The notes under the pieces were generated by a model that saw only the letters and a list, made by a program, of their open reading frames with translations, had not been told where the DNA came from and searched no databases. The translations under genes were made by a program, and so were the position numbers. From Candidatus Nealsonbacteria bacterium (GTDB lineage: Bacteria; Patescibacteriota; Minisyncoccia; Minisyncoccales; MHMH01): a stretch of DNA of 64,000 nt. The stretch covers positions 13,197 through 77,196 of the forward strand of contig JACPGX010000001.1 of NCBI GenBank assembly GCA_016188865.1. Direction: 5' to 3'. Of the stretch, positions 1,221 to 55,804 are shown one piece after another (within the stretch, counting starts at the first letter, position 1; each line of letters begins with the position of its first letter).

Positions 1221-2095
1221 GATTGAGATCATTGAGTCTATGTCTCGTTCCCAGTTCGATTTTCTATCGAACTCTTAATTTTCCATATTAAGACTGAACG
1301 AACGGATTTCCCGTATTCAGCGAGTCCAAAAAATATGCATTTCTTTTTTCCATTGCTTAATCTGTTCAAGTCCATTTTTTGTTTGATGCCTTTTTTTTAT
1401 CACAGCATCCACGATTTTCTTAAATAATCTGAAGTCGTGAATCTTATTACCTTCTAAAGGATTGGCATCGAAAAATGGTATGATGATTTCTCGAATCTCT
1501 TGAAGTTGTGTTGTTTCGTAGCGGTAGCAATTATGATGATTCGGACGACGATCTTTTTGGAAAGAGATGCGTCCTACCCCGAAGAATTGTTTCACCTTTT
1601 TTAAAAGAGGCAAATCATCTTCCCGTAGTTTTACATAATAATGGCATTCCACTCGATAATTCTTTGCACCATGCTTTTTACTAGGCGGACGGATATAGGC
1701 AGTAAAACTGCCCTCCCCGTCGGTTAGACCAACAATGTAATTTTTCGAAATCATACTTTTTGGTTAGGCCCTTCCCCGTCACAACTTCTTAACGAAGATG
1801 TTGGCGGGTACTATGGCGCTAGCTGACTTCCTAGAACTGTAAGGACTCTATTTCTAGGATATCCCCGGGTAATTTATTCTGCTCTTCCGAGCATCCTATA
1901 AGAAAAATTGATGGACTTCCTTCTGACCGCCCGCAGAAGTCGTTCAATTTCTTTATGATATCATAGGCTGCTCTTTGCCTCAAGCCCTCTGCCCTGAACC
2001 CTTACGAGTCAGGACTGCTATTTTTTTGGCTACCCTGTTTTGCAGGGACAGGATTTTAACCTGTTAGTAGAATAAACCGCCGGGCACAGTTGTTT
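1221..2095 (-). mobile_element. 16S insertion/intron 1 (~875 nt) in the decoding-centre (~1400) region, carries homing endonuclease gene
   Basis: 16S reads ..GTACTCACCGCC (ends 2096) then resumes CGTCACGTCAAG at 1220; boundary ambiguous by 1 nt. Confidence 0.8.
1317..1754 (-). CDS. LAGLIDADG homing endonuclease (single-motif)
   Basis: 145 aa, N-terminal YIVGLTDGEGSF motif; located inside 16S insertion 1. Confidence 0.85.
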   Translation of the reverse strand: MISKNYIVGLTDGEGSFTAYIRPPSKKHGAKNYRVECHYYVKLREDDLPLLKKVKQFFGVGRISFQKDRRPNHHNCYRYETTQLQEIREIIIPFFDANPLEGNKIHDFRLFKKIVDAVIKKRHQTKNGLEQIKQWKKEMHIFWTR

Positions 2096-3468
2096 GGCGG
2101 TGAGTACAAGATTCAGGAACGTATTCATCGCCACATAGCTGATTGGCGATTACTAGCGATTCCGGCTTCATGAGGTCGAGTTTCAGACCTCAATCTGAAC
2201 TGGGGAGCCGTTTGATGCGATTAGCTCCAGCTTGCGCTTTAGCAACGCATTGTCGGCTCCATTGTATCATGTGTGCGGCCCAGGATGTCAAAGGGCCACG
2301 CTGATCTGGCGTCATCCCCACCTTCCTCCTGGTTGTCCCAGGCAGTCTCCTGTGACAGATAAAACACAGGATAGGGGTTGCGCATGTTATCCCATTTAAG
2401 GATGCGTCTCAAGATACATGCTGACGACGACCGTGCAGCACCTGCCACGCCGTCCTTGTGAGAAGTCCCAATTTTCATCGGGATTTCGTCGTGGTTTCTA
2501 ACCCTGGTAAGGTTCTTCGTTTGTTGTCGAATTAAGCCACATGATCCACCGCTTGTGTGAATCCCCGTCTATTCCTTTGAGTTTTAGTGTTGCCACCGTA
2601 CTTCCCAGGCGGGACACTTAACGCGTTAGCTTCGCCACTTGAAGGGTCGACACTTCAAATAGCCAGTGTCCATAGTTTACAGCGTGGACTACAAGGGTAT
2701 CTAATCCTTATCGCTCCCCACGCTTTCGTCCCTCAGTGTCAGGATCGTCCCAGCTGACTGCCTTCGCTTTTGGTGTTCCGCACGATATCAACGGATTTCA
2801 CCCCTACACCGTGCGTTCCGTCAGCCTCTAACGTCCTCGATTCTGCCAGTTTTTTCTGCAGCTCCCAGGTTGAGCCCGAGAGATTTAACAGAAAACTTAA
2901 CAAAAAACCTACGGACCCTTTACGCCCAATAAATCCGGATAACGCTCGAGGTCTCTGTATTACCGCTGCTGCTGGCACAGAGTTAGCAACCTCTTATTCC
3001 ACCAGTACAATCAGCCTTGCGGCTTTCTCCTGGTGAAAAGTAGTTTACAAACCTAAGTCCTTCTTCCTACACGCGGCGTCGCTCGATCAGGGTTTCCCCC
3101 ATTGTCGAATATTCTCGACTGCTGCCTCCCGTAGGAGTATGGGCCATGTCGCAGTCCCATTGTTGGGGGTCGCGCTCTCACGCCCCCTACCCGTCATAGC
3201 CTTGGTGGGCCATTACCTCACCAACTAGCTGATAGGCCGCAGACCCATCCCATTCCCCCTAAGCCTTACGGCCGGGTTTACCCTTGCGGGACTATCGGGA
3301 ATTAACCAACCTTTCGGCTGGTTGTGCCCGTGAATGGGGTTGGTATCTACGTGTTACTAACCCATTTGCCGGTTGCCCTTGCGGGCCCCCATGACTTGCA
3401 TGCCTTATCCACGCCGCCAGCGTTCATCCTGAGCTAGGATCAAACTCTCAAAAAAAACTTAATTTTTT

Positions 3469-3817: not shown

Positions 3818-4447
3818 TTATTTAGATGGGAGCACTTTTAACGGCTCCATAGTTCCGCTTTCGTAAGCCTTAAGAGCGTCCGGAGCAAGAACAATGCGAT
3901 ACATTCTATCCCGGGCCTCAACGCCCTTCAAAGATTGATCCCCAATTCTGGCCTCTAATCTTGAACTCGGAAAGCCAAGCATTCTTACCGCCTGACTTTT
4001 CACTATTCCTGTTTCTCGCCAGGAATCATATGCTCTCAGCATATCGAGCAATTTGCTTTGCGTTGCCCGATAGCCTTCTCGGCCAGCTGCAACATAATTC
4101 ACGACTTTATCGTAGACATCCAAACCAGCCAGATTCGGGTAAGCTTCCATAATGCCGGTGAAAAAAGATGAACCGACATTGAAACCGCCCTTATCGTAGC
4201 GTCCTCTTACCGCATCGGAAAGAATTTGATCTAATTTCTCCGACTTCAAGTTCGCTATTCCCAACTGCTCGTAAAATCCGCTTACATAAGCCGAGAGATA
4301 ATTCTGATTATCAAGGTACTGGGCAGTCAAACGGGTTTCGTGTTGGATACCATCATTTCTTACCCCATTCACCCAGCCGTAAAGACTTAGGCCTACAATA
4401 AGAATTATCGCGACAAATATGCCAAGACCGATTAGAACCCCTTTCAT
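3818..4447 (-). CDS. membrane-anchored protein of unknown function
   Basis: 209 aa; single N-terminal TM (GVLIGLGIFVAIILIVGLSLYGW); AGGAGGAG SD upstream of ATG. Confidence 0.7.
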   Translation of the reverse strand: MKGVLIGLGIFVAIILIVGLSLYGWVNGVRNDGIQHETRLTAQYLDNQNYLSAYVSGFYEQLGIANLKSEKLDQILSDAVRGRYDKGGFNVGSSFFTGIMEAYPNLAGLDVYDKVVNYVAAGREGYRATQSKLLDMLRAYDSWRETGIVKSQAVRMLGFPSSRLEARIGDQSLKGVEARDRMYRIVLAPDALKAYESGTMEPLKVLPSK

Positions 4448-5956: not shown

Positions 5957-6137
5957 AGCCGGAGAGAGGATTTGAACCCCCGACCTTCGCTTTACAAAAG
6001 CGTTGCCCCGCCTGCCAAAGCCTGAGCCGATGGTCGGATTTGAACCGACGACCTACTGTTTACAAAACAGTTGCTCTACCACTGAGCTACATCGGCTTAG
6101 GCTATGGCGGGCAGGTCTACCGCTGAGCTACTCCGGC
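5957..6137 (-). pseudogene. outer tRNA-Thr(UGU)-like gene interrupted in the D arm by a 109-nt insertion containing an intact tRNA-Thr
   Basis: GCCGGAG-TA-GCTC-AGCGGTA-GA [insertion 6115-6007] GC-A-ACGCT-TTTGTAA-AGCGA-AGGTC-GGGGG-TTCAAAT-CCTCT-CTCCGGC-T; acceptor halves 6137-6131 and 5964-5958 are complementary. Confidence 0.6.
6025..6096 (-). tRNA. tRNA-Thr(UGU)
   Basis: GCCGATG-TA-GCTC-AGTGGTA-GAGC-A-ACTGT-TTTGTAA-ACAGT-AGGTC-GTCGG-TTCAAAT-CCGAC-CATCGGC-T, 72 nt. Confidence 0.9.
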
Positions 6138-9924: not shown

Positions 9925-9939
9925 ACTTAAAATACAAGG

Positions 9940-9970
9940 AAAAATACAGGGGTTGCGCCCCTGTATTTTT
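9940..9970. repeat. hairpin at 3' flank of Y1-transposase-like gene 1
   Basis: aaaaatacagggg ttgcg cccctgtattttt, 13-bp stem. Confidence 0.8.
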
Positions 9971-9977
9971 ACTCTAA

Positions 9978-10700
9978 TTACTCTAAAACTAGGTCTTTAA
10001 TTTTTTCAAAATCCTTCTTTAATTCTGTTTTATATAAAATCCGGTCTTCAATAGATTTTTTAATCCCATCTGAACCGCCAAAGAATTCCATTACAAAATC
10101 TCTTTTTGTAACCGATGGAAAATTTGGCATTCCAATACAATCTAAGTAGTTCGACCAACGATAAGATTCTAAAAATTGAATGGCTCTTTTAATATATTTC
10201 ACTCCCACCTCTTTCCATTTTTTCTCTATTAATTCAACTGGATTAGTGAAAATATAACAAATTAAAGCCAGTAGCTGTCTATCGTTTTTTACGTGAACAG
10301 CCTTAAAACGACCCTGGAATAAAGAACCCATTCTTTTTCTATTATGTTTTAGATTAAAGTACCCAACATAACTATCGGCTAACTTCTTCATAAAAAGAGA
10401 AATGCCACCATCGACCAATTGTCTTAAAACTAAATGGTAATGATTTGGCATTAAACAAAAGGTAATAACTTCTACTAACATTTCCCTATCAGATACACGG
10501 GTTGCACCCGTGTATTTTCTTTCTTTTCTTTCAGATACCCTATCTCGCATTTTAATTAATTTTTTGTCGTTTAGCTCGTAAAGACAAAAGACAAACCTGA
10601 AATAATCAGAAACTTGTTGAAAAATACTTCTTTTTTCTACCCCTCTGTTAAAAATATGGTAAAGTTGTCCGGCAATAAATTGTGGTCGTTGTGATGGCAT
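9978..10700 (-). CDS. HUH/Y1 transposase-like protein (IS200/IS605 TnpA / RayT, COG1943-like), copy 1
   Basis: 240 aa; HUH motif LMPNHYHLVL, Tyr motif CYIFTNPV. Confidence 0.8.
   Translation of the reverse strand: MPSQRPQFIAGQLYHIFNRGVEKRSIFQQVSDYFRFVFCLYELNDKKLIKMRDRVSERKERKYTGATRVSDREMLVEVITFCLMPNHYHLVLRQLVDGGISLFMKKLADSYVGYFNLKHNRKRMGSLFQGRFKAVHVKNDRQLLALICYIFTNPVELIEKKWKEVGVKYIKRAIQFLESYRWSNYLDCIGMPNFPSVTKRDFVMEFFGGSDGIKKSIEDRILYKTELKKDFEKIKDLVLE
10493..10515. repeat. intragenic hairpin related to the flanking hairpins of copy 1
   Basis: atacacggg ttgca cccgtgtat; encodes ..YTGATRVS.. in the linker before the HUH motif. Confidence 0.75.
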
Positions 10701-10731: not shown

Positions 10732-10758
10732 AAATACACGGGTGTAATCCGTGTATTT
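10732..10758. repeat. hairpin at 5' flank of Y1-transposase-like gene 1
   Basis: aaatacacgg gtgtaat ccgtgtattt, 10-bp stem. Confidence 0.8.
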
Positions 10759-16979: not shown

Positions 16980-18834
16980 AAATTAGTTTTTTAATTTTAT
17001 CAACGCTTTCTGGATTGGCTAAAGTTGATAGATCTCCCAGTTCTTCTCCTGTAAATAACTTTCTTAAAATCCTCCTCATAATTTTGCCCGATCTGGTCTT
17101 TGGCAAATCTTCAACTAAATAAATTTCTTTAGGCAAAGCAATGGGGCCGATGCCTTTTTGAATCTGGGCGATTACCTCTCTTTTGATTTCCTCGACAGGC
17201 CTTGCTCCTTTATAAATAACGAAGGTTACCGGCACTTCTCCTTTTATTTTATCGGGAATTCCCACCACGGCGCATTCTGAAATTTCCGGATGATCGTTGA
17301 CGGCAGCTTCCATTTCGCCCGTACTGATTCTATGGCCGGCTACTTTAATTACATCGTCAACCCTACCTATTACTCTAATTAAGCCGTGCTCATCCATAAT
17401 AGCTCCGTCGGAAGTGAAATAAACTTTTTTACCGTATTGAGACCAATAAGTTTCGAGATACTTTTCTGGATTATGGTAAATTCCTCTTAATAAACTCGGG
17501 GCGAAGGGCGGCAGAATAACTAAGTTCCCATGCTTGCCGTTTTGCCCATCCCTGATTTCAGTTTTCACTCCGGGGAATGGCAAACCGGTAAATGCCGGCT
17601 TAAATGGTCCTAATCCCGGCAATGAAGTCAGCAAGATGCCGCCTGTTTCCGTCTGCCACCAGGTGTCGACTATCGGGCATTTTTCTTTCCCCACATTTTT
17701 ATAATACCACAACCAAGCCGACTCATCGATCGGCTCGCCAACTGTGCCCAGCAGTCTTAATTTTTTAAATTGATATTTTTTAATGATATCTTCGCCATAT
17801 TTTTCAAACATTCTAATAGCTGTAGGAGCAGTATAAAATACGGTAACTCCGTATTTTTCAATAATCTGCGCCCACCTATCGGGCGTTGGAAAATCAGGCA
17901 CTCCCTCAAACATCAAAGTGGCAATACCATTCATCAGGGGAGAATAAATAGTATATGTATGACCGGTAATCCAGCCGGGATCGGAAGTACACCAAAAAAC
18001 ATCGTCTTCGTGGAAATCGAAAATATATCTGCCGGTCCAATAAGCCTGAACTGAGTATCCTCCGCAAGCATGCATGCAACCTTTTGGTTTTCCGGTTGAT
18101 CCAGAAGTATAAAGAATAAATTGTAAATCCTCCGAATCCATAAAAACGGCTTTGCAGAAATCATCTTCTTTATGCCAGGGTGCTTTGTTAGATCTTTCTA
18201 CCACGATCAATTTCTTTACCTTCGTTCCTTTAATGCTCTCTTCAACGTTTTTAAATAAATTAATAAGCTGACCTCTCCGATAGTAGCTATCTGCGGTAAT
18301 TAAAACTTTAGCTCCTGTATCCTGCAGCCTCACCTTTAAAGCATTAGGAGAAAAAGCGGAAAATACCACGCTGTGCACGGCTCCTATTCTGGCGCAAGCG
18401 AGCATAGCTATTACTACTTCTGGAATCATGGGCAGATATATGCCCACCCTATCGCCTTTTTTAACTCCCAGTCCCTTAAGATGATTGGCGCATTTGCAAA
18501 CTTCTTTAAAAAGTTCCTGATAGGTAAAAACTTTTGATTTTTCGTTAAGAGACTCAGGCTCCCAAATCAAGGCAATCTTATCTTTTTTCACCACCCAATC
18601 TTTTTCAAAAATATTGGCAGTAATATTTATTTTTCCGCCGGCAAACCACTGAAAATTGGGCGGCTTATGTATAAAGCCCTTTTTCCACAACTTAAACCAA
18701 AAAAGATCTTTGGCTAATTTCTCCCAAAATTTAACCGGATCTTTTGCCGCTTCTTTATAAATTTTCGGATCGCTAACCCAGGCATTTTTTTTAAATTCCT
18801 CGGTTGGATAATATAGTTCGCCCCTTTTAATCAT
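16972..18834 (-). CDS. acs: acetyl-CoA synthetase (AMP-forming)
   Basis: 620 aa; YTSGSTGKPKG AMP-binding motif, ..WWQTETGG.. Confidence 0.9.
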   Translation of the reverse strand: MIKRGELYYPTEEFKKNAWVSDPKIYKEAAKDPVKFWEKLAKDLFWFKLWKKGFIHKPPNFQWFAGGKINITANIFEKDWVVKKDKIALIWEPESLNEKSKVFTYQELFKEVCKCANHLKGLGVKKGDRVGIYLPMIPEVVIAMLACARIGAVHSVVFSAFSPNALKVRLQDTGAKVLITADSYYRRGQLINLFKNVEESIKGTKVKKLIVVERSNKAPWHKEDDFCKAVFMDSEDLQFILYTSGSTGKPKGCMHACGGYSVQAYWTGRYIFDFHEDDVFWCTSDPGWITGHTYTIYSPLMNGIATLMFEGVPDFPTPDRWAQIIEKYGVTVFYTAPTAIRMFEKYGEDIIKKYQFKKLRLLGTVGEPIDESAWLWYYKNVGKEKCPIVDTWWQTETGGILLTSLPGLGPFKPAFTGLPFPGVKTEIRDGQNGKHGNLVILPPFAPSLLRGIYHNPEKYLETYWSQYGKKVYFTSDGAIMDEHGLIRVIGRVDDVIKVAGHRISTGEMEAAVNDHPEISECAVVGIPDKIKGEVPVTFVIYKGARPVEEIKREVIAQIQKGIGPIALPKEIYLVEDLPKTRSGKIMRRILRKLFTGEELGDLSTLANPESVDKIKKLIYG

Positions 18835-21337: not shown

Positions 21338-21386
21338 CGAATAAAAGAGGTCCGACCCCGCAAAAAATTGTGCGGGGTCGGACCTC
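21338..21386 (-). terminator. intrinsic terminator after eno
   Basis: 16-bp stem gaggtccgaccccgca/tgcggggtcggacctc followed on minus strand by TTTTATT. Confidence 0.75.
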
Positions 21387-21392
21387 CAGATA

Positions 21393-22460
21393 TTATTTTA
21401 ATTCCTCCTCTATTTTTAATAATCTATTATATTTAGCCACTCTTTCTCCTCTGGCCGGAGCCCCGGCTTTGATATAGTCGGCTCCGATGCCCACCGCCAG
21501 GTCGGCAATAAAATCGTCATTGGTTTCGCCAGATCTGTGCGAAACTATTATTTTCCAGCCGTAGGATTTAGCTAATCTTGCCGCCTGCAGAGCTTCCGAT
21601 ACCGTGCCAATTTGATTAATTTTCAAAATCATCGCATTGCAAAGATTTTTTTCTTTTGCCATTTTTATTCTTTCGGGATTAGTTGCCAGCAAATCATCGC
21701 CGATTATTAAAATATTTTTAGGTTTAAATTCCTGCCAACTCTGAAGATTATCTTCCATAAATGGATCTTCCAGCCCAATAATAGGATATTTTTTAATTAA
21801 TTTATAATAATAAGCCGGGTCATATTGTTTTCTGGCGGCAACATCAATAATAATTTTAACATTATATTTGGATAAAAGATCCAGAGCTTCTTCCGCCTTT
21901 TTAAAAGGCGGCGCAAATCCCCCTTCGTCTCCGACATTTTTCCCTAATTTTTTGCGCAAGTCCCGGTAAATTTCCGACGCCCTTTGGATGCTACAAACTG
22001 CCATAAACTCCTGGAAATCAAGGTCATTGGTGGCATGCATTCCCCCATTAATCATATTAAAAGCCGCCTGAGGCAAAATAATCTTACGAGGCTTCGCCTC
22101 GTAAATTTTGGCCGCATATGAGTATAGGGGTAGATTTTTGGCTGCGGCTGCGGCTCCGGCTCTGGCCACTGCCATGGAAACCGGAGTCGTGGCATTGGTC
22201 CCGACATTCAATTTTTTAAGAATTTCGTCAATCCCCTTTTGGTCTAAAACATCTTTTCCATTTAACTCTCTGCTTACTAAACTATTTATATTCTTCACCG
22301 CAACTTCCGGAGACGCGGTTTTAGCTTCGTATTTGCCGGTAGATGCTCCCGAGGGGGCAGAGTCAGTAAAAATACCTTGATTTGTCTCAAGGTTAACTTC
22401 CGCCGTCCAGTTTCCCCTCGAATCCAAAATTTTCCTAGCCGTGATTGATAATATATTCAT
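21393..22460 (-). CDS. eno: enolase (compact, ~355 aa)
   Basis: ARKILDSRGNWTAEV..SGASTG..EA, ..SHRSGET..; start at MNILSI (22460). Confidence 0.85.
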   Translation of the reverse strand: MNILSITARKILDSRGNWTAEVNLETNQGIFTDSAPSGASTGKYEAKTASPEVAVKNINSLVSRELNGKDVLDQKGIDEILKKLNVGTNATTPVSMAVARAGAAAAAKNLPLYSYAAKIYEAKPRKIILPQAAFNMINGGMHATNDLDFQEFMAVCSIQRASEIYRDLRKKLGKNVGDEGGFAPPFKKAEEALDLLSKYNVKIIIDVAARKQYDPAYYYKLIKKYPIIGLEDPFMEDNLQSWQEFKPKNILIIGDDLLATNPERIKMAKEKNLCNAMILKINQIGTVSEALQAARLAKSYGWKIIVSHRSGETNDDFIADLAVGIGADYIKAGAPARGERVAKYNRLLKIEEELK

Positions 22461-26475: not shown

Positions 26476-26940
26476 TTACTTTTTATAAAGTTCTCTGGCA
26501 TCTTTTCGCAAAAAAACCTGCGAAACACCAACTCTTATTATTTCATCCCAACAGGGCTCACATACCCACCAATGACCATCTAAATACATACTGGCGCCCT
26601 TGGGGTCGCTTCCTTTATTCAGGGTGTCGCGGATTGCCATAACTTCGCAGTGCCCTTCTTGTTTACAAACCGTCTTACAAAACTCGTACCCAGTGCCAGT
26701 GGGGCAATTACGGATTACTCTTGGACAAACCTCTACTTTTTCACCAGCGTTTACGCCACGACCGATAATCTTTCCTCGCTTAACAATAACTGCGGCGGTT
26801 GGTTGCTTAATGCAACCAGAATTAGCCAGTATTTTCGTCGCTTCTTTCATAAATTTATTAGTCGGACTTACGTATAGAATCTTTCGGTTTTTAGGCAGAT
26901 ATGGCAGCAATCTCGTCCTCCATTTTTCACCTCTTAACAT
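26476..26940 (-). CDS. dCMP/cytidine deaminase family protein (ComEB-like)
   Basis: 154 aa; zinc motifs HCEVMAI and CEPCWDEI, extra Cys cluster. Confidence 0.75.
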   Translation of the reverse strand: MLRGEKWRTRLLPYLPKNRKILYVSPTNKFMKEATKILANSGCIKQPTAAVIVKRGKIIGRGVNAGEKVEVCPRVIRNCPTGTGYEFCKTVCKQEGHCEVMAIRDTLNKGSDPKGASMYLDGHWWVCEPCWDEIIRVGVSQVFLRKDARELYKK

Positions 26941-26941
26941 T

Positions 26942-27667
26942 TTATTCGAGACTTATTTCTTTAAAAACCGACGTCTCTCTTAATTCTCTCTTGGCTTGAA
27001 GCCAATCGTTGATAAATCTTTGAGCTTCTTTAATCCCGTCCATCTCATTGATCAAAAATTCTCTACTAGTTAGGGATGGAAAATTTTTCTTTCCGAGACA
27101 ATCGGGATAGCTTGACCAGCGATAATTTTCTATAAATTCTATTACTTTATTTAACTCTTTACCAATAATTCCACCCTCTTTCCAGTTTGGTATCAAAATC
27201 GCCACTGGATTAGTATGGATATAAACAAAGACTATTTTTAATTGATTATCATTCTCAATATGAATAGCTCTATACCTTCCGTCAAACAGCCGGCCTTTCC
27301 TTTGATATTTTTTGTTGTAGTATCCTCCGTAGCCTGCGCCAATTTTTCTCATAAGCTTGCTAATGCCCCCGTCTGAAACTTGTCTAACTAATAAGTGGAT
27401 ATGATTTGACATTAGGCAAAAAGCTAAAACTTCCACTAACAATTTTCTCTTCGTAAATAGAGCGAGAACACTTCTCGCTCTATTGGGTATCTCATTTCCT
27501 TGTCTACGATAAGTAGAAATTGCTGCATTATTATTATTAAAAACAAACAAGCTATGGATCATTCTATAATAATCTTTTTCATTGCGAAAAAGCTTCATCC
27601 CCTCGATTGCTCGAATTACGATGTGGTATATTTCTCCATTAATTAATGGTGGTCGTTTAACTGGCAT
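26942..27667 (-). CDS. HUH/Y1 transposase-like protein, copy 2
   Basis: MPVKRPPLINGEIYHIV.., HUH LMSNHIHLLV, Tyr motif VYIHTNPV; ORF-track start 27763 rejected (runs through hairpin and terminator). Confidence 0.8.
   Translation of the reverse strand: MPVKRPPLINGEIYHIVIRAIEGMKLFRNEKDYYRMIHSLFVFNNNNAAISTYRRQGNEIPNRARSVLALFTKRKLLVEVLAFCLMSNHIHLLVRQVSDGGISKLMRKIGAGYGGYYNKKYQRKGRLFDGRYRAIHIENDNQLKIVFVYIHTNPVAILIPNWKEGGIIGKELNKVIEFIENYRWSSYPDCLGKKNFPSLTSREFLINEMDGIKEAQRFINDWLQAKRELRETSVFKEISLE
27456..27484. repeat. intragenic palindrome of copy 2
   Basis: aatagagcgagaa cac ttctcgctctatt; same stem as 27668-27700 with inverted loop; encodes ..NRARSVLALF.. Confidence 0.8.
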
Positions 27668-27700
27668 ATAATAGAGCGAGAAGTGTTCTCGCTCTATTAT
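27668..27700. repeat. 15-bp-stem palindrome abutting the start codon of copy 2
   Basis: ataatagagcgagaa gtg ttctcgctctattat, ends 1 nt from ATG(27667). Confidence 0.8.
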
Positions 27701-35826: not shown

Positions 35827-35853
35827 AAAACTAACGATGTCGTTCTTCGTTAG
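35827..35853. repeat. hairpin repeat i of Y1-transposase-like gene 3 (3' flank)
   Basis: aaaactaacgatgtcgttcttcgttag; ctaacga/tcgttag stem; abuts stop codon. Confidence 0.8.
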
Positions 35854-36600
35854 TTATTCAATGGCGACTTGTTCCGAATCGGCCAATTCTCTTTTTACTT
35901 GCAGCCAATCATTGACTAATCTTCGGGCTTCTTTAACGCCGCCCATTTCATTAATCAGCCATTCCCTGGCAGTGACGGACGGAAAATTTTTATTGCCAAG
36001 GCAATCGAGATAGCTTGACCAACGATATTCTTCTTCAAGAAATTTAATAATTTTATTTAAATCTTTAATTTTGATTCCCTCTTCTTTCCACTTCGGACAA
36101 ATAATTGCTACTGGATTGGTATGAATATAGACAAAAACAATTTTTAATTGGTTGTCGTTAGTAATATAAACTATTTTATATCTTCCCTGAAAAACATGCC
36201 CCGCTCTTTTATATTTCTGATTATAGTAATGTCCGTATCCAGTCCCAATTTTTCTCATGAGTTTAATTATACCGCCATCTTTGACTTGTCGCACCAACAG
36301 ATGAACATGATTTAACATCAAACAAAATGCCAATATCTCTACTATAATTTCTCTTTTTTCATCTCTTATATTTACTAAACTAACGATGTCGTTCTTCGTT
36401 AATTTTCGTTTTAGAGAAAAATGGCGGGCAACACGGAATTTTGAAGAAACTGGCTTTAAGTCGTTGAATACAAATAAATTATGGATCATTTGCAAATAAT
36501 CTTGCTTATCACGAAAAAGCTTTAGGCCATCTACTGCCCGAATAACAATGTGGTATATTTCCTTAGTAACTAATGGTGGTCTTCTGCCTTTATTCTTCAT
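35854..36600 (-). CDS. HUH/Y1 transposase-like protein, copy 3
   Basis: 248 aa; HUH LMLNHVHLLV, Tyr motif VYIHTNPV. Confidence 0.8.
   Translation of the reverse strand: MKNKGRRPPLVTKEIYHIVIRAVDGLKLFRDKQDYLQMIHNLFVFNDLKPVSSKFRVARHFSLKRKLTKNDIVSLVNIRDEKREIIVEILAFCLMLNHVHLLVRQVKDGGIIKLMRKIGTGYGHYYNQKYKRAGHVFQGRYKIVYITNDNQLKIVFVYIHTNPVAIICPKWKEEGIKIKDLNKIIKFLEEEYRWSSYLDCLGNKNFPSVTAREWLINEMGGVKEARRLVNDWLQVKRELADSEQVAIE
36376..36403. repeat. hairpin repeat ii, inside the ORF of copy 3
   Basis: taaactaacgatgtcgttcttcgttaat; encodes ..LTKNDIVSLV.. in the pre-HUH linker. Confidence 0.8.
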
Positions 36601-36628
36601 AAAACTAACGATGTCGTTCTTCGTTAAT
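36601..36628. repeat. hairpin repeat iii, abutting the start codon of copy 3
   Basis: aaaactaacgatgtcgttcttcgttaat begins 1 nt after ATG(36600). Confidence 0.8.
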
Positions 36629-36631
36629 TAT

Positions 36632-36660
36632 ACTATAGCGAAATAAAAATACCCTGCCAA
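36632..36660 (-). promoter_or_regulatory. promoter of copy 3 (TTGGCA-17-TATAGT)
   Basis: Minus strand cTTGGCAgggtatttttatttcgcTATAGTataatt; transcript would start at the hairpin. Confidence 0.5.
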
Positions 36661-36664
36661 GAGT

Positions 36665-36700
36665 GTCTCCAAGAACGTCTCCAAGAACGTCTCCAAGAAC
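36665..36700. repeat. 3 x 12-bp perfect tandem repeat gtctccaagaac
   Basis: Units 36665-76, 36677-88, 36689-700; directly upstream of the copy-3 promoter. Confidence 0.85.
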
Positions 36701-36709
36701 GAAAGGCTT

Positions 36710-36750
36710 GCCCTCCCACTCATGCATAGGTGGGAGGGCTTGTTTTTTTT
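36710..36750 (+). terminator. orphan plus-strand intrinsic terminator
   Basis: gccctcccac/gtgggagggc 10-bp stem + TTGTTTTTTTT; no plus-strand gene directly upstream. Confidence 0.65.
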
Positions 36751-50815: not shown

Positions 50816-50829
50816 TCAATGATACGCCA

Positions 50830-50854
50830 TGTAACGGGTCGTACCCGTTACATT
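50830..50854. repeat. 25-nt palindromic element, copy 1
   Basis: tgtaacgggtcgtacccgttacatt identical to 54836-54860. Confidence 0.85.
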
Positions 50855-53805: not shown

Positions 53806-53838
53806 ATTAAAAAATACGCAGGTTCAACCCGCGTATTT
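53806..53838 (-). terminator. intrinsic terminator after 53837-54529
   Basis: aaatacgc..gcgtattt hairpin followed on minus strand by TTTTTT. Confidence 0.6.
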
Positions 53839-54774: not shown

Positions 54775-54835
54775 CCTCCACCTCTATTTTTAAATAACTA
54801 ATCATAGTTTAGCAAATCAAGCCGAAAAATAAAAG

Positions 54836-54860
54836 TGTAACGGGTCGTACCCGTTACATT
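54836..54860. repeat. 25-nt palindromic element, copy 2
   Basis: tgtaacgggtcgtacccgttacatt; overlaps -35 of the next promoter. Confidence 0.85.
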
Positions 54861-55776: not shown

Positions 55777-55804
55777 AAATACACCGGTTGAACCGGTGTA
55801 TTTT
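55777..55804. terminator. palindromic AAATAC..GTATTT hairpin downstream of the tRNA-Lys locus
   Basis: aaatacaccggtt g aaccggtgtattt, 13-bp stem. Confidence 0.55.

Follow-up and report, generated by a model that had tools for sequence, protein, structure and literature searches.

In subclass 2.4 tnpA_REP genes of Cyanobacteria and Bacteroidetes, repetitive extragenic palindromes (REPs) are inserted in frame, a feature called unique to that subclass (Quentin, Siguier, Chandler, Fichant 2018, PMC6006769), and no REPs are reported for TnpA_Y1 subclass 2.1 (PMC6006769). Short palindromes are also tolerated in frame in surface regions of proteins as Rickettsia palindromic elements (RPEs) and as GTAG/CGTC REPs (Di Nocera et al. 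2013, PMC3733652). The DNA analysed here, hereafter called the window, is a stretch of 64,000 nucleotides (nt) from Candidatus Nealsonbacteria with three paralogous Y1 (HUH) transposase-like open reading frames (ORFs), W1, W2 and W3, all on the minus strand. Each of them has, in the linker just upstream of the HUH strand, a copy of the palindrome that flanks the gene itself. The finding is real, statistically overwhelming and general, and is only partly anticipated in the literature. Related loci and proteins are referred to by L and P numbers. The genes and their palindromes are the following:

9978-10700, minus strand: W1, Y1 transposase-like gene, 240 amino acids (aa), HUH motif NHYH, tyrosine motif YIFTNPV (from the ORF list and Pfam Y1_Tnp)
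10493-10515: W1 intragenic palindrome ATACACGGGTTGCACCCGTGTAT, in the linker between alpha1 and beta2, encoding YTGATRV
10734-10756: W1 5' terminal palindrome, where homology with relatives starts; overlaps a promoter-like -35
9944-9966 (9937-9973 with a foot of A/T runs): W1 3' terminal palindrome, where homology with L001, L002 and L005 stops
26942-27667, minus strand: W2, Y1 transposase-like gene (protein P0028), 241 aa counted from MPVKRPP
27456-27484: W2 intragenic palindrome, 13-bp stem and loop CAC, encoding NRARSVLALF
27670-27698: W2 5' terminal palindrome, loop GTG, ending 2 nt before the ATG
35854-36600, minus strand: W3, Y1 transposase-like gene (protein P0001), 248 aa, annotated at NCBI as a transposase of a Candidatus Nealsonbacteria metagenome-assembled genome (MAG)
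36376-36403: W3 intragenic copy, encoding LTKNDIVSL, residues modelled with a predicted local distance difference test score (pLDDT) of about 50
36601-36628: W3 5' terminal copy, directly adjoining the ATG
35829-35855: W3 3' terminal imperfect palindrome, overlapping the final two bases of the stop codon

The positions of the three intragenic copies and the peptides they encode had been proposed in a sequence-only reading of the window, and all are correct. The accompanying statement that each linker repeats the flanking hairpin of its own gene holds for all three genes, with two reservations. The three copies of W1 are similar rather than identical, differing at one or two of the specified stem positions, and W2 has no copy 3' of the gene, the next gene beginning 2 nt past its stop codon. 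The inner and 5' copies of W2 are exact reverse complements of each other, so that the inverted loop (CAC against GTG) described earlier is present, but the stem measures 13 bp and not 12. In W3 all copies are direct repeats, and the identity of 25 nt to both flanks that had been claimed amounts to 28 nt with 36601-36628 and 25 nt with 35829-35853. A search of the whole window with each palindrome pattern, allowing at most 3 mismatches, returned only the copies at the gene itself for W2 and W3, and for W1 two additional, loosely similar hairpins at 53814 and 55779. The 3, 2 and 3 copies of W1, W2 and W3 compare with 0.00 matches expected in shuffled sequence, which excludes chance as their source. 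Folded as single-stranded DNA, the inner hairpins of W1 (-10.1 kcal/mol, z -5.65) and W2 (-12.6 kcal/mol, z -8.34) are stable; that of W3 is weak (z -1.1) and has an A.A mismatch in its stem.

Two details of these copies are noted in passing. On the 3' side of W2 (26938-26944) the gene that begins 2 nt past the stop codon is deaminase-like (26476-26940), and the W2 element appears to be truncated at this end. The intragenic copy of W3 includes, at 36380-36401, the pattern AACGA..TCGTT.C.T.TCGTT with an extra partial arm, so that alternative pairings are possible.

The question whether the arrangement is general was answered with a homologue scan, one genome per species, which gave 80 loci with 40-73 % identity to W1, nearly all from MAGs of Patescibacteria, the candidate phyla radiation (CPR). 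In the 74 usable loci, the 110 nt before the codons of the FCLM.NH.H motif were compared with the flanks of the same locus, an exact word of at least 12 nt being taken as correspondence. Such a word was shared with the upstream flank in 60 of 72 loci (83 %) and with the downstream flank in 53 of 70 (76 %). Other 110-nt coding segments shared one with their own flanks in 6 of 434 comparisons (1 %), and linkers shared one with the flanks of other loci in 25 of 848 (3 %). The two flanks match each other in 61 of 68 other loci. The check that had been suggested in the sequence-only reading, a broad homologue set, was thus strongly positive, and the covariation of the inner copy with its own flanks, seen there in three genes, is borne out against controls of 1-3 %. 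Among all loci collected, 92 have linker-flank correspondence, and their palindromes form at least 40 families without a common 10-mer. The triple palindrome is found again, as GTCGAGAAC[G/C]GTTCTCGAC, in a fourth paralogue that the same genome has outside the window (L169, protein P0012). The triple arrangement is the rule in a large, mostly CPR gene family, of which a database search gives more than 1000 proteins and the small CPR genomes have several paralogues each. Some loci that failed the motif filters were considered as truncated forms; they turned out to be intact genes whose motifs vary, a single frameshift, or loci at contig ends, and P0051, a candidate C-terminal fragment, is an under-called intact gene.

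The presence of the inner palindrome varies with the length of the protein segment between the YH and HUH motifs. In a scan of metagenomes which reached distant relatives, linker-flank matches were found in none of 19 loci with a spacing of 35-45 aa, the spacing of canonical relatives, in 1 of 9 with 46-58 aa, in 11 of 22 with 59-66 aa, in 60 of 78 with 67-75 aa and in 19 of 26 with 76-95 aa. The inner palindrome therefore goes with a clade-specific loop that canonical Y1 relatives lack. It is also found in relatives with just 27-35 % identity (L115, L119, L133, L134, L136 and L160), and across the whole family it lies 40-85 nt upstream of the codons for the HUH strand. Distant relatives with the 40-aa spacing have flanks of the GGGGTCAGG type, like TIRYTs.

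The proteins encoded by W1, W2 and W3 belong to the Y1 HUH superfamily by Pfam assignment, motifs and fold. All three pass the cut-off of Pfam Y1_Tnp (PF01797; 30.5, 42.6 and 38.8 bits against 23), with the HUH motifs NHYH, NHIH and NHVH and the tyrosine motif YIFTNPV or YIHTNPV. The identity of W1 to W2 and W3 is 41-42 %, and that of W2 to W3 61 %. An AlphaFold (AF2) model of W3 was built on 58 homologues, among which H98, H100 and Y158 (W3 numbering) are invariant. Against solved structures, phmmer gave no match and a profile search only weak matches to ISDra2, so that a comparison of folds was required. The top Foldseek match of the model was 4er8_A (E 1.6e-5, probability 1.00), the E. coli RAYT (REP-associated tyrosine transposase) in complex with a REP hairpin; complexes of IS608 and ISDra2 TnpA with hairpins (2a6m, 2vjv and 2xm3) came next. 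The mean pLDDT of the model is 84.9, and that of residues 50-80, which include LTKNDIVSL, is 47-54; the inner copy is thus predicted to encode a flexible loop between helix alpha1 and the strand preceding the HUH strand.

The outer palindromes are, by alignment, the ends of a mobile element. The DNA similarity between W1 and its relatives L001, L002 and L005 (69-73 % identical) starts at the upstream palindrome and stops at the downstream one, with none beyond, and in a synteny comparison no gene adjoining W1, W2 or W3 recurred near any of the 80 related loci. Homology that is bounded by palindromes, with neighbours that are not shared, indicates that a discrete unit, about 0.8-0.9 kb long, has been mobile. 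At the median, 3.5 nt separate the stop codon from the start of the downstream palindrome and 21.5 nt separate the end of the upstream one from the ATG; the median centre-to-centre distances are 225 nt from upstream to inner and 541 nt from inner to downstream copy. The upstream palindromes lie in or beside promoter-like sites. In W1 (10748-10719) the -35 is within the loop of the 5' palindrome, in W2 (27724-27696) the -10 overlaps the first bases of the palindrome, and in W3 a -10 lies just 5' of it at 36632-36637. An ATAAT box beside the palindrome is conserved among W2, W3, L020 and L061. A search for an empty site by way of homologues of the neighbouring NAD synthase gene gave no clean example, synteny being too weak at 71-77 % identity. 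Several terminal palindromes (the downstream ends of L018, L042, L049, L074 and L078) have an extra partial copy of one arm before or after them. Directly upstream of the W3 promoter-like site, at 36657-36701, there are about 3.7 copies of the 12-nt tandem repeat CCAAGAACGTCT, and then a terminator-like hairpin (36710-36739). In L167 the position of this unrelated hairpin, upstream of an NAD synthase homologue, is taken by a REPIN-like double hairpin, TAGAGGTTGAACCTCC CGCG GGAGGTTCAACCTCTA (3897-3936).

Within subfamilies, the reading frame, the adjoining residues and the peptide pattern of the inner copy are constant while the stem sequence varies, as in Q-S-[ILY]-E-V-x-[LP]-x-[KY], and KLT....VSL is common to W3, its closest relative P0002 and the paralogue P0033. 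This constancy points to an inherited site rather than repeated insertion, and the inner copy was present already in the ancestor of the large, mostly CPR clade. Where linker and flanks do not match, relics of the copy can be recognised, such as TCTAAGGAA in L062 and a diverged copy in L084.

The three copies of an element evolve in concert, and several facts point to copying rather than independent selection for pairing. All three copies of W3 have the same mismatch in the stem, and in L093, L113 and L134 the inner copy agrees exactly with a flank copy in its imperfect stem. In L085, which encodes a protein 81 % identical to that of W3 in another genomic context, both flanks are CTAACGAGGAACGACCTCGTTAG and the inner copy is the exact reverse complement. 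Its 5-nt loop is flipped with the frame kept, giving KLT-RSFL-VSL where W3 has KLT-KNDI-VSL. Most palindromes are perfect with a 3-nt loop, and the orientation of the flank loops relative to the inner loop is random across loci, all four combinations being found (21, 16, 12 and 9 loci). Shared mismatches, flipped loops and random orientation argue for copying between palindromes; as the arms are self-complementary, copying is possible in either alignment, which would randomise the loop orientation. Gene conversion or template switching during replication may be the mechanism; for the latter it has been described how it inverts the loops of hairpins and brings about compensatory changes in them (PMC8794818). 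The compensated pair in the downstream copy of W1, C-G to G-C, shows that there has been some independent evolution too.

The inner copy is kept less strictly than the ends. Perfect stems of at least 8 pairs are found in 46 % of linkers, as against 63 % in each of the flanks and 3 % in coding segments elsewhere, and in 11 of the 74 loci (about 15 %) the inner copy has decayed in place. Nine of these 11 retain matched terminal palindromes and an intact ORF, and the linker length is unchanged (73 against 71 aa). In loci with a decayed inner copy the ends stay matched, so that their maintenance does not depend on it, and a model in which it serves as a back-up template for repair of the ends is disfavoured.

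Compared with known systems, W1, W2 and W3 are neither canonical RAYTs nor classical IS200 elements. With the REPtron/RAYT system (E. coli TnpA_REP, 4er8) they share the Y1 HUH fold, the Y...NP motif, own flanking palindromes (on both sides of W1 and W3, on the 5' side only of W2) and a separate palindrome family for each paralogue. They differ in that the palindromes are not dispersed, the 2-3 copies in 64 kb all being at the gene. The palindrome of L169 is likewise absent from the window, dispersal being judged on 64 kb plus 6.6 kb of the genome. There is no GT[AG]G foot, the feet being ATAC, AATAG and CTAAC, and no conserved motif was found in 46 loci. Several paralogues, at least five on one 271-kb contig, occur per genome, at locations not conserved between genomes, and all three proteins fall short of the equivalog cut-off of NCBIfam REP_Tyr_transpos (37.7, 41.5 and 41.1 bits, that is 38-42, against 80).

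Like the IS200/IS605 elements IS608, ISDra2 and IS200, the present elements have one Y1 gene, hairpins at both ends where homology stops, and differing contexts. Their proteins, in contrast, have 240-248 aa, the class-2 Y...NP motif and a C-terminal tail instead of about 150 aa and Y...Q; their ends are near-perfect palindromes, and copies within a genome are 41-66 % identical rather than near-identical. We know of no third hairpin inside tnpA of IS608, ISDra2 or IS200, and a literature search found none described. The tyrosine motif of subclass 1.1 is Y[IV]ENQ (Table 1, PMC6006769). By their motifs the proteins resemble subclass 2.1 or TIRYT (about 238 aa; NH[VYF]H; FQ or W[EQ]; Y[IV]H.NP; an SS motif in the C-terminal tail), having LFQGRY, YIHTNP, RWSSY and about 240 aa, as judged by eye against Table 1 of PMC6006769. 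In contrast to subclass 2.1 as described there, palindromes flank and interrupt the present genes.

Subclass 2.4 is the precedent for an in-frame copy. No precedent in RayT elements was known to the sequence-only reading, but the in-frame REPs of that subclass had already been described (PMC6006769). There, too, the cognate palindrome is in the flanks and inside the gene, with the frame unbroken and in a peripheral, variable region of the model. Here, however, the copy precedes the HUH strand, in a single loop, and is present in about 75 % of a mostly CPR clade, and concerted evolution and loop flipping are not described for subclass 2.4. What is new is thus the different clade, the different conserved position, the near-universal presence, and the clear concerted evolution with loop flipping. 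RPEs and REPs within genes stem from a dispersed repeat whose insertions are scattered over many genes of the host, whereas the palindrome here belongs to the gene of the enzyme that should recognise it, keeps a conserved place there, and follows the ends of the element. A literature search for work on RAYTs or REPtrons in CPR bacteria found nothing.

The reading proposed here is that each gene is the sole ORF of a compact mobile element, about 0.8-0.9 kb long and of the IS200/RAYT (Y1 HUH) superfamily, bounded on each side by a palindrome, one in or near the promoter and the other a few nt after the stop codon. A third, ancestral copy of the element's own end lies in frame in the flexible loop, with one frame and one peptide pattern in each subfamily, and recurrent short-patch copying would keep the three copies alike and flip their loops. 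The inner copy is identical to the ends, and relatives of the protein bind end palindromes as single-stranded hairpins; most likely, therefore, the protein of the element has in it a third site to bind, again as a single-stranded hairpin. Bound in this way, the copy might modulate the element without being essential to it, as a decoy or an internal operator by which expression or productive pairing of the ends is damped. The anatomy, its generality, the ancestral position of the inner copy and the concerted evolution are established by the observations above, whereas the mechanism of copying, the binding and the damping are inferred. Operators inside coding regions are known, with lac O2 in lacZ and gal OI in galE as second sites of a regulator about 100-400 bp from the promoter-proximal site. 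The analogy is functional only: in both cases a second copy of the regulator's site lies within the regulated coding sequence, but lac O2 and gal OI are duplex operators with helical phasing, whereas no phasing is seen here and the expected ligand binds single-stranded hairpins.

Taken as a whole, an ancestral in-frame end copy, homogenised by copying and most likely a non-essential modulatory third binding site, is a tentative explanation, to which we give slightly less than an even chance. Retention of the inner copy in about 75 % of a very divergent clade speaks for a functional role. Several results weigh on the other side. The inner copy has the lower share of perfect stems given above, and its decay in about 15 % of otherwise intact loci means that it is dispensable, that any function is non-essential and that neutrality is a live option. 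The spacing between upstream and inner copies has no helical phasing (Rayleigh tests at periods of 9.5-11.5, not significant), the promoter-like sites are consensus matches only, without enrichment over shuffled sequences, and a conserved cleavage or guide motif beside the palindromes is absent at family and subfamily level in the 46 loci. The claim made from the sequence alone, that covariation implies function, is accordingly not established: the pattern is one of concerted evolution by copying, with an inner copy that is less perfect than the ends and sometimes lost. A model of duplex looping was considered separately and is ruled against by the Rayleigh tests.

A stronger form of the proposal is that the in-frame palindrome is a selected third site, the Y1 protein binding a hairpin in its own gene and so controlling its own synthesis or the pairing of the ends, with sites and protein co-evolving as one specificity module. 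This is possible, if somewhat doubtful; if true, it would explain how dozens of orthogonal protein-palindrome pairs diversified in tiny CPR genomes.

The main rival is neutrality. The cognate palindrome could have been inserted once into a permissive loop and been refreshed ever since by short-patch copying faster than it decays, with no effect on element or host. The low model confidence of the loop (pLDDT 47-54), the greater degeneracy of the inner copy, its loss in about 15 % of loci with ORF, ends and linker length preserved, and the signatures of copying all fit this explanation, and in-frame REP and RPE insertions in unrelated proteins are seen by their authors as tolerated, not functional (PMC3733652; PMC6006769). 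To account for about 75 % retention across a clade diverged to 27-40 % identity, however, homogenisation over only about 25 nt would have to be very efficient, and binding can hardly be avoided by a single-stranded copy that is identical to what the protein itself recognises. A purely neutral copy is a serious possibility, although rather on the unlikely side.

It is quite unlikely that the inner palindrome is an alternative end or internal recombination site. If the protein paired it with one terminal copy, about 225 nt with the promoter and the N-terminal part, or about 540 nt with the catalytic part, could be excised, deleted or inverted, as programmed self-inactivation or as an on/off switch. 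Y1 transposases such as that of IS608 pair two hairpins in the transpososome, and IS608-type enzymes are among the structural matches; any two of the palindromes are direct and inverted repeats at once, and the spacings are well conserved (medians 225 and 541 nt). Nevertheless, neither palindrome-bounded deletion forms nor inverted N-terminal segments were found in about 160 assembled loci, consensus assemblies being unable to show minor variants of a population. The ORFs are overwhelmingly intact, and no cleavage-site motif can be recognised.

An element acting at the RNA level, as a ribosome pause, an RNase processing site or a stabiliser of the mRNA, resembling the flanks because all three copies are transcribed, is very unlikely. 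The stems are stable in W1 and W2 (-10 to -12.6 kcal/mol as DNA) and reach 17-25 bp in some relatives. Yet the mismatches in sense-strand stems of linker copies show no excess of G.T over A.C (18 against 29), the upstream palindrome of W1 is at the -35 and so outside the predicted transcript, the W3 hairpin is weak (z -1.1), no Rfam family matched at the hairpins, and identity to the flanks would be given no reason. Recurrent independent insertion of the cognate REP into a linker hot spot, in place of one ancestral insertion and concerted evolution, would agree with the variable length and sequence of subclass 2.4 insertions (PMC6006769) and with the 40-85 nt range of distances to the HUH codons, but is most improbable given the constant frame, neighbouring residues and peptide pattern within subfamilies as stems change, the KLT....VSL shared by W3, L085 and P0033, and the preserved linker length and relics (L062, L084) of non-matching loci.

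Little is understood of how Y1 transposases and RAYTs remain matched to their palindromes, or of what restrains them, and the clade described here is a natural experiment on this question. Each element has its recognition site written three times, one of them within the sequence that codes for the enzyme itself, and there are at least 40 unrelated versions of the site. Co-evolution of specificity, the rate and direction of short-patch copying including loop flipping, and damping of transposition by the internal site are directly testable in it. In practice, the palindromes break short-read assemblies and force palindrome-shaped peptides into proteins, which matters for the annotation of CPR genomes. 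Short-read assemblies of the same population break at them: L081 ends at about 27704, just past the W2 5' palindrome, L083 is a contig of 916 nt with little more than the W3 element, and many family members are on contigs of about 1 kb.

The window contains other palindromes. Two copies of TGTAACGGGTCGTACCCGTTACA, at 50829-50853 and 54834-54860, are 4 kb apart. Between them are a gene for a UvrD-like helicase and two small ORFs, but no Y1 gene; the first copy shares one base with the stop codon of the helicase gene. The pair could represent element ends of this kind, as orphan or REP-like copies. Solitary GC-topped palindromes in the style of those associated with Y1 genes are found at 22084-22104, 53812-53838, 55777-55803, 17835-17857 and 21347-21386 (with a 17-bp stem at 21347). 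No exact match was found between the orphan hairpins of the window and the palindromes of all fetched loci; one solitary palindrome, TTACGAGGCTTCGCCTCGTAA, resembles those of L050 and L069.

In 7 of 8 blocks of the window the plus strand has a negative GC skew, and all three Y1 genes are on the minus strand, so that their sense strand has the sequence of the leading strand, which is that of the lagging-strand template. IS200/IS605 elements favour this orientation, a comparison weakened by the small number of genes (three) and by general gene-strand bias. Elsewhere in the window, a group I intron at 709-1151 (Rfam, 74.6 bits) is near a 16S rRNA gene (2048-3455) with only 1408 matching bases, and tRNAs are found near these two features at 398-470 and 6025-6096.

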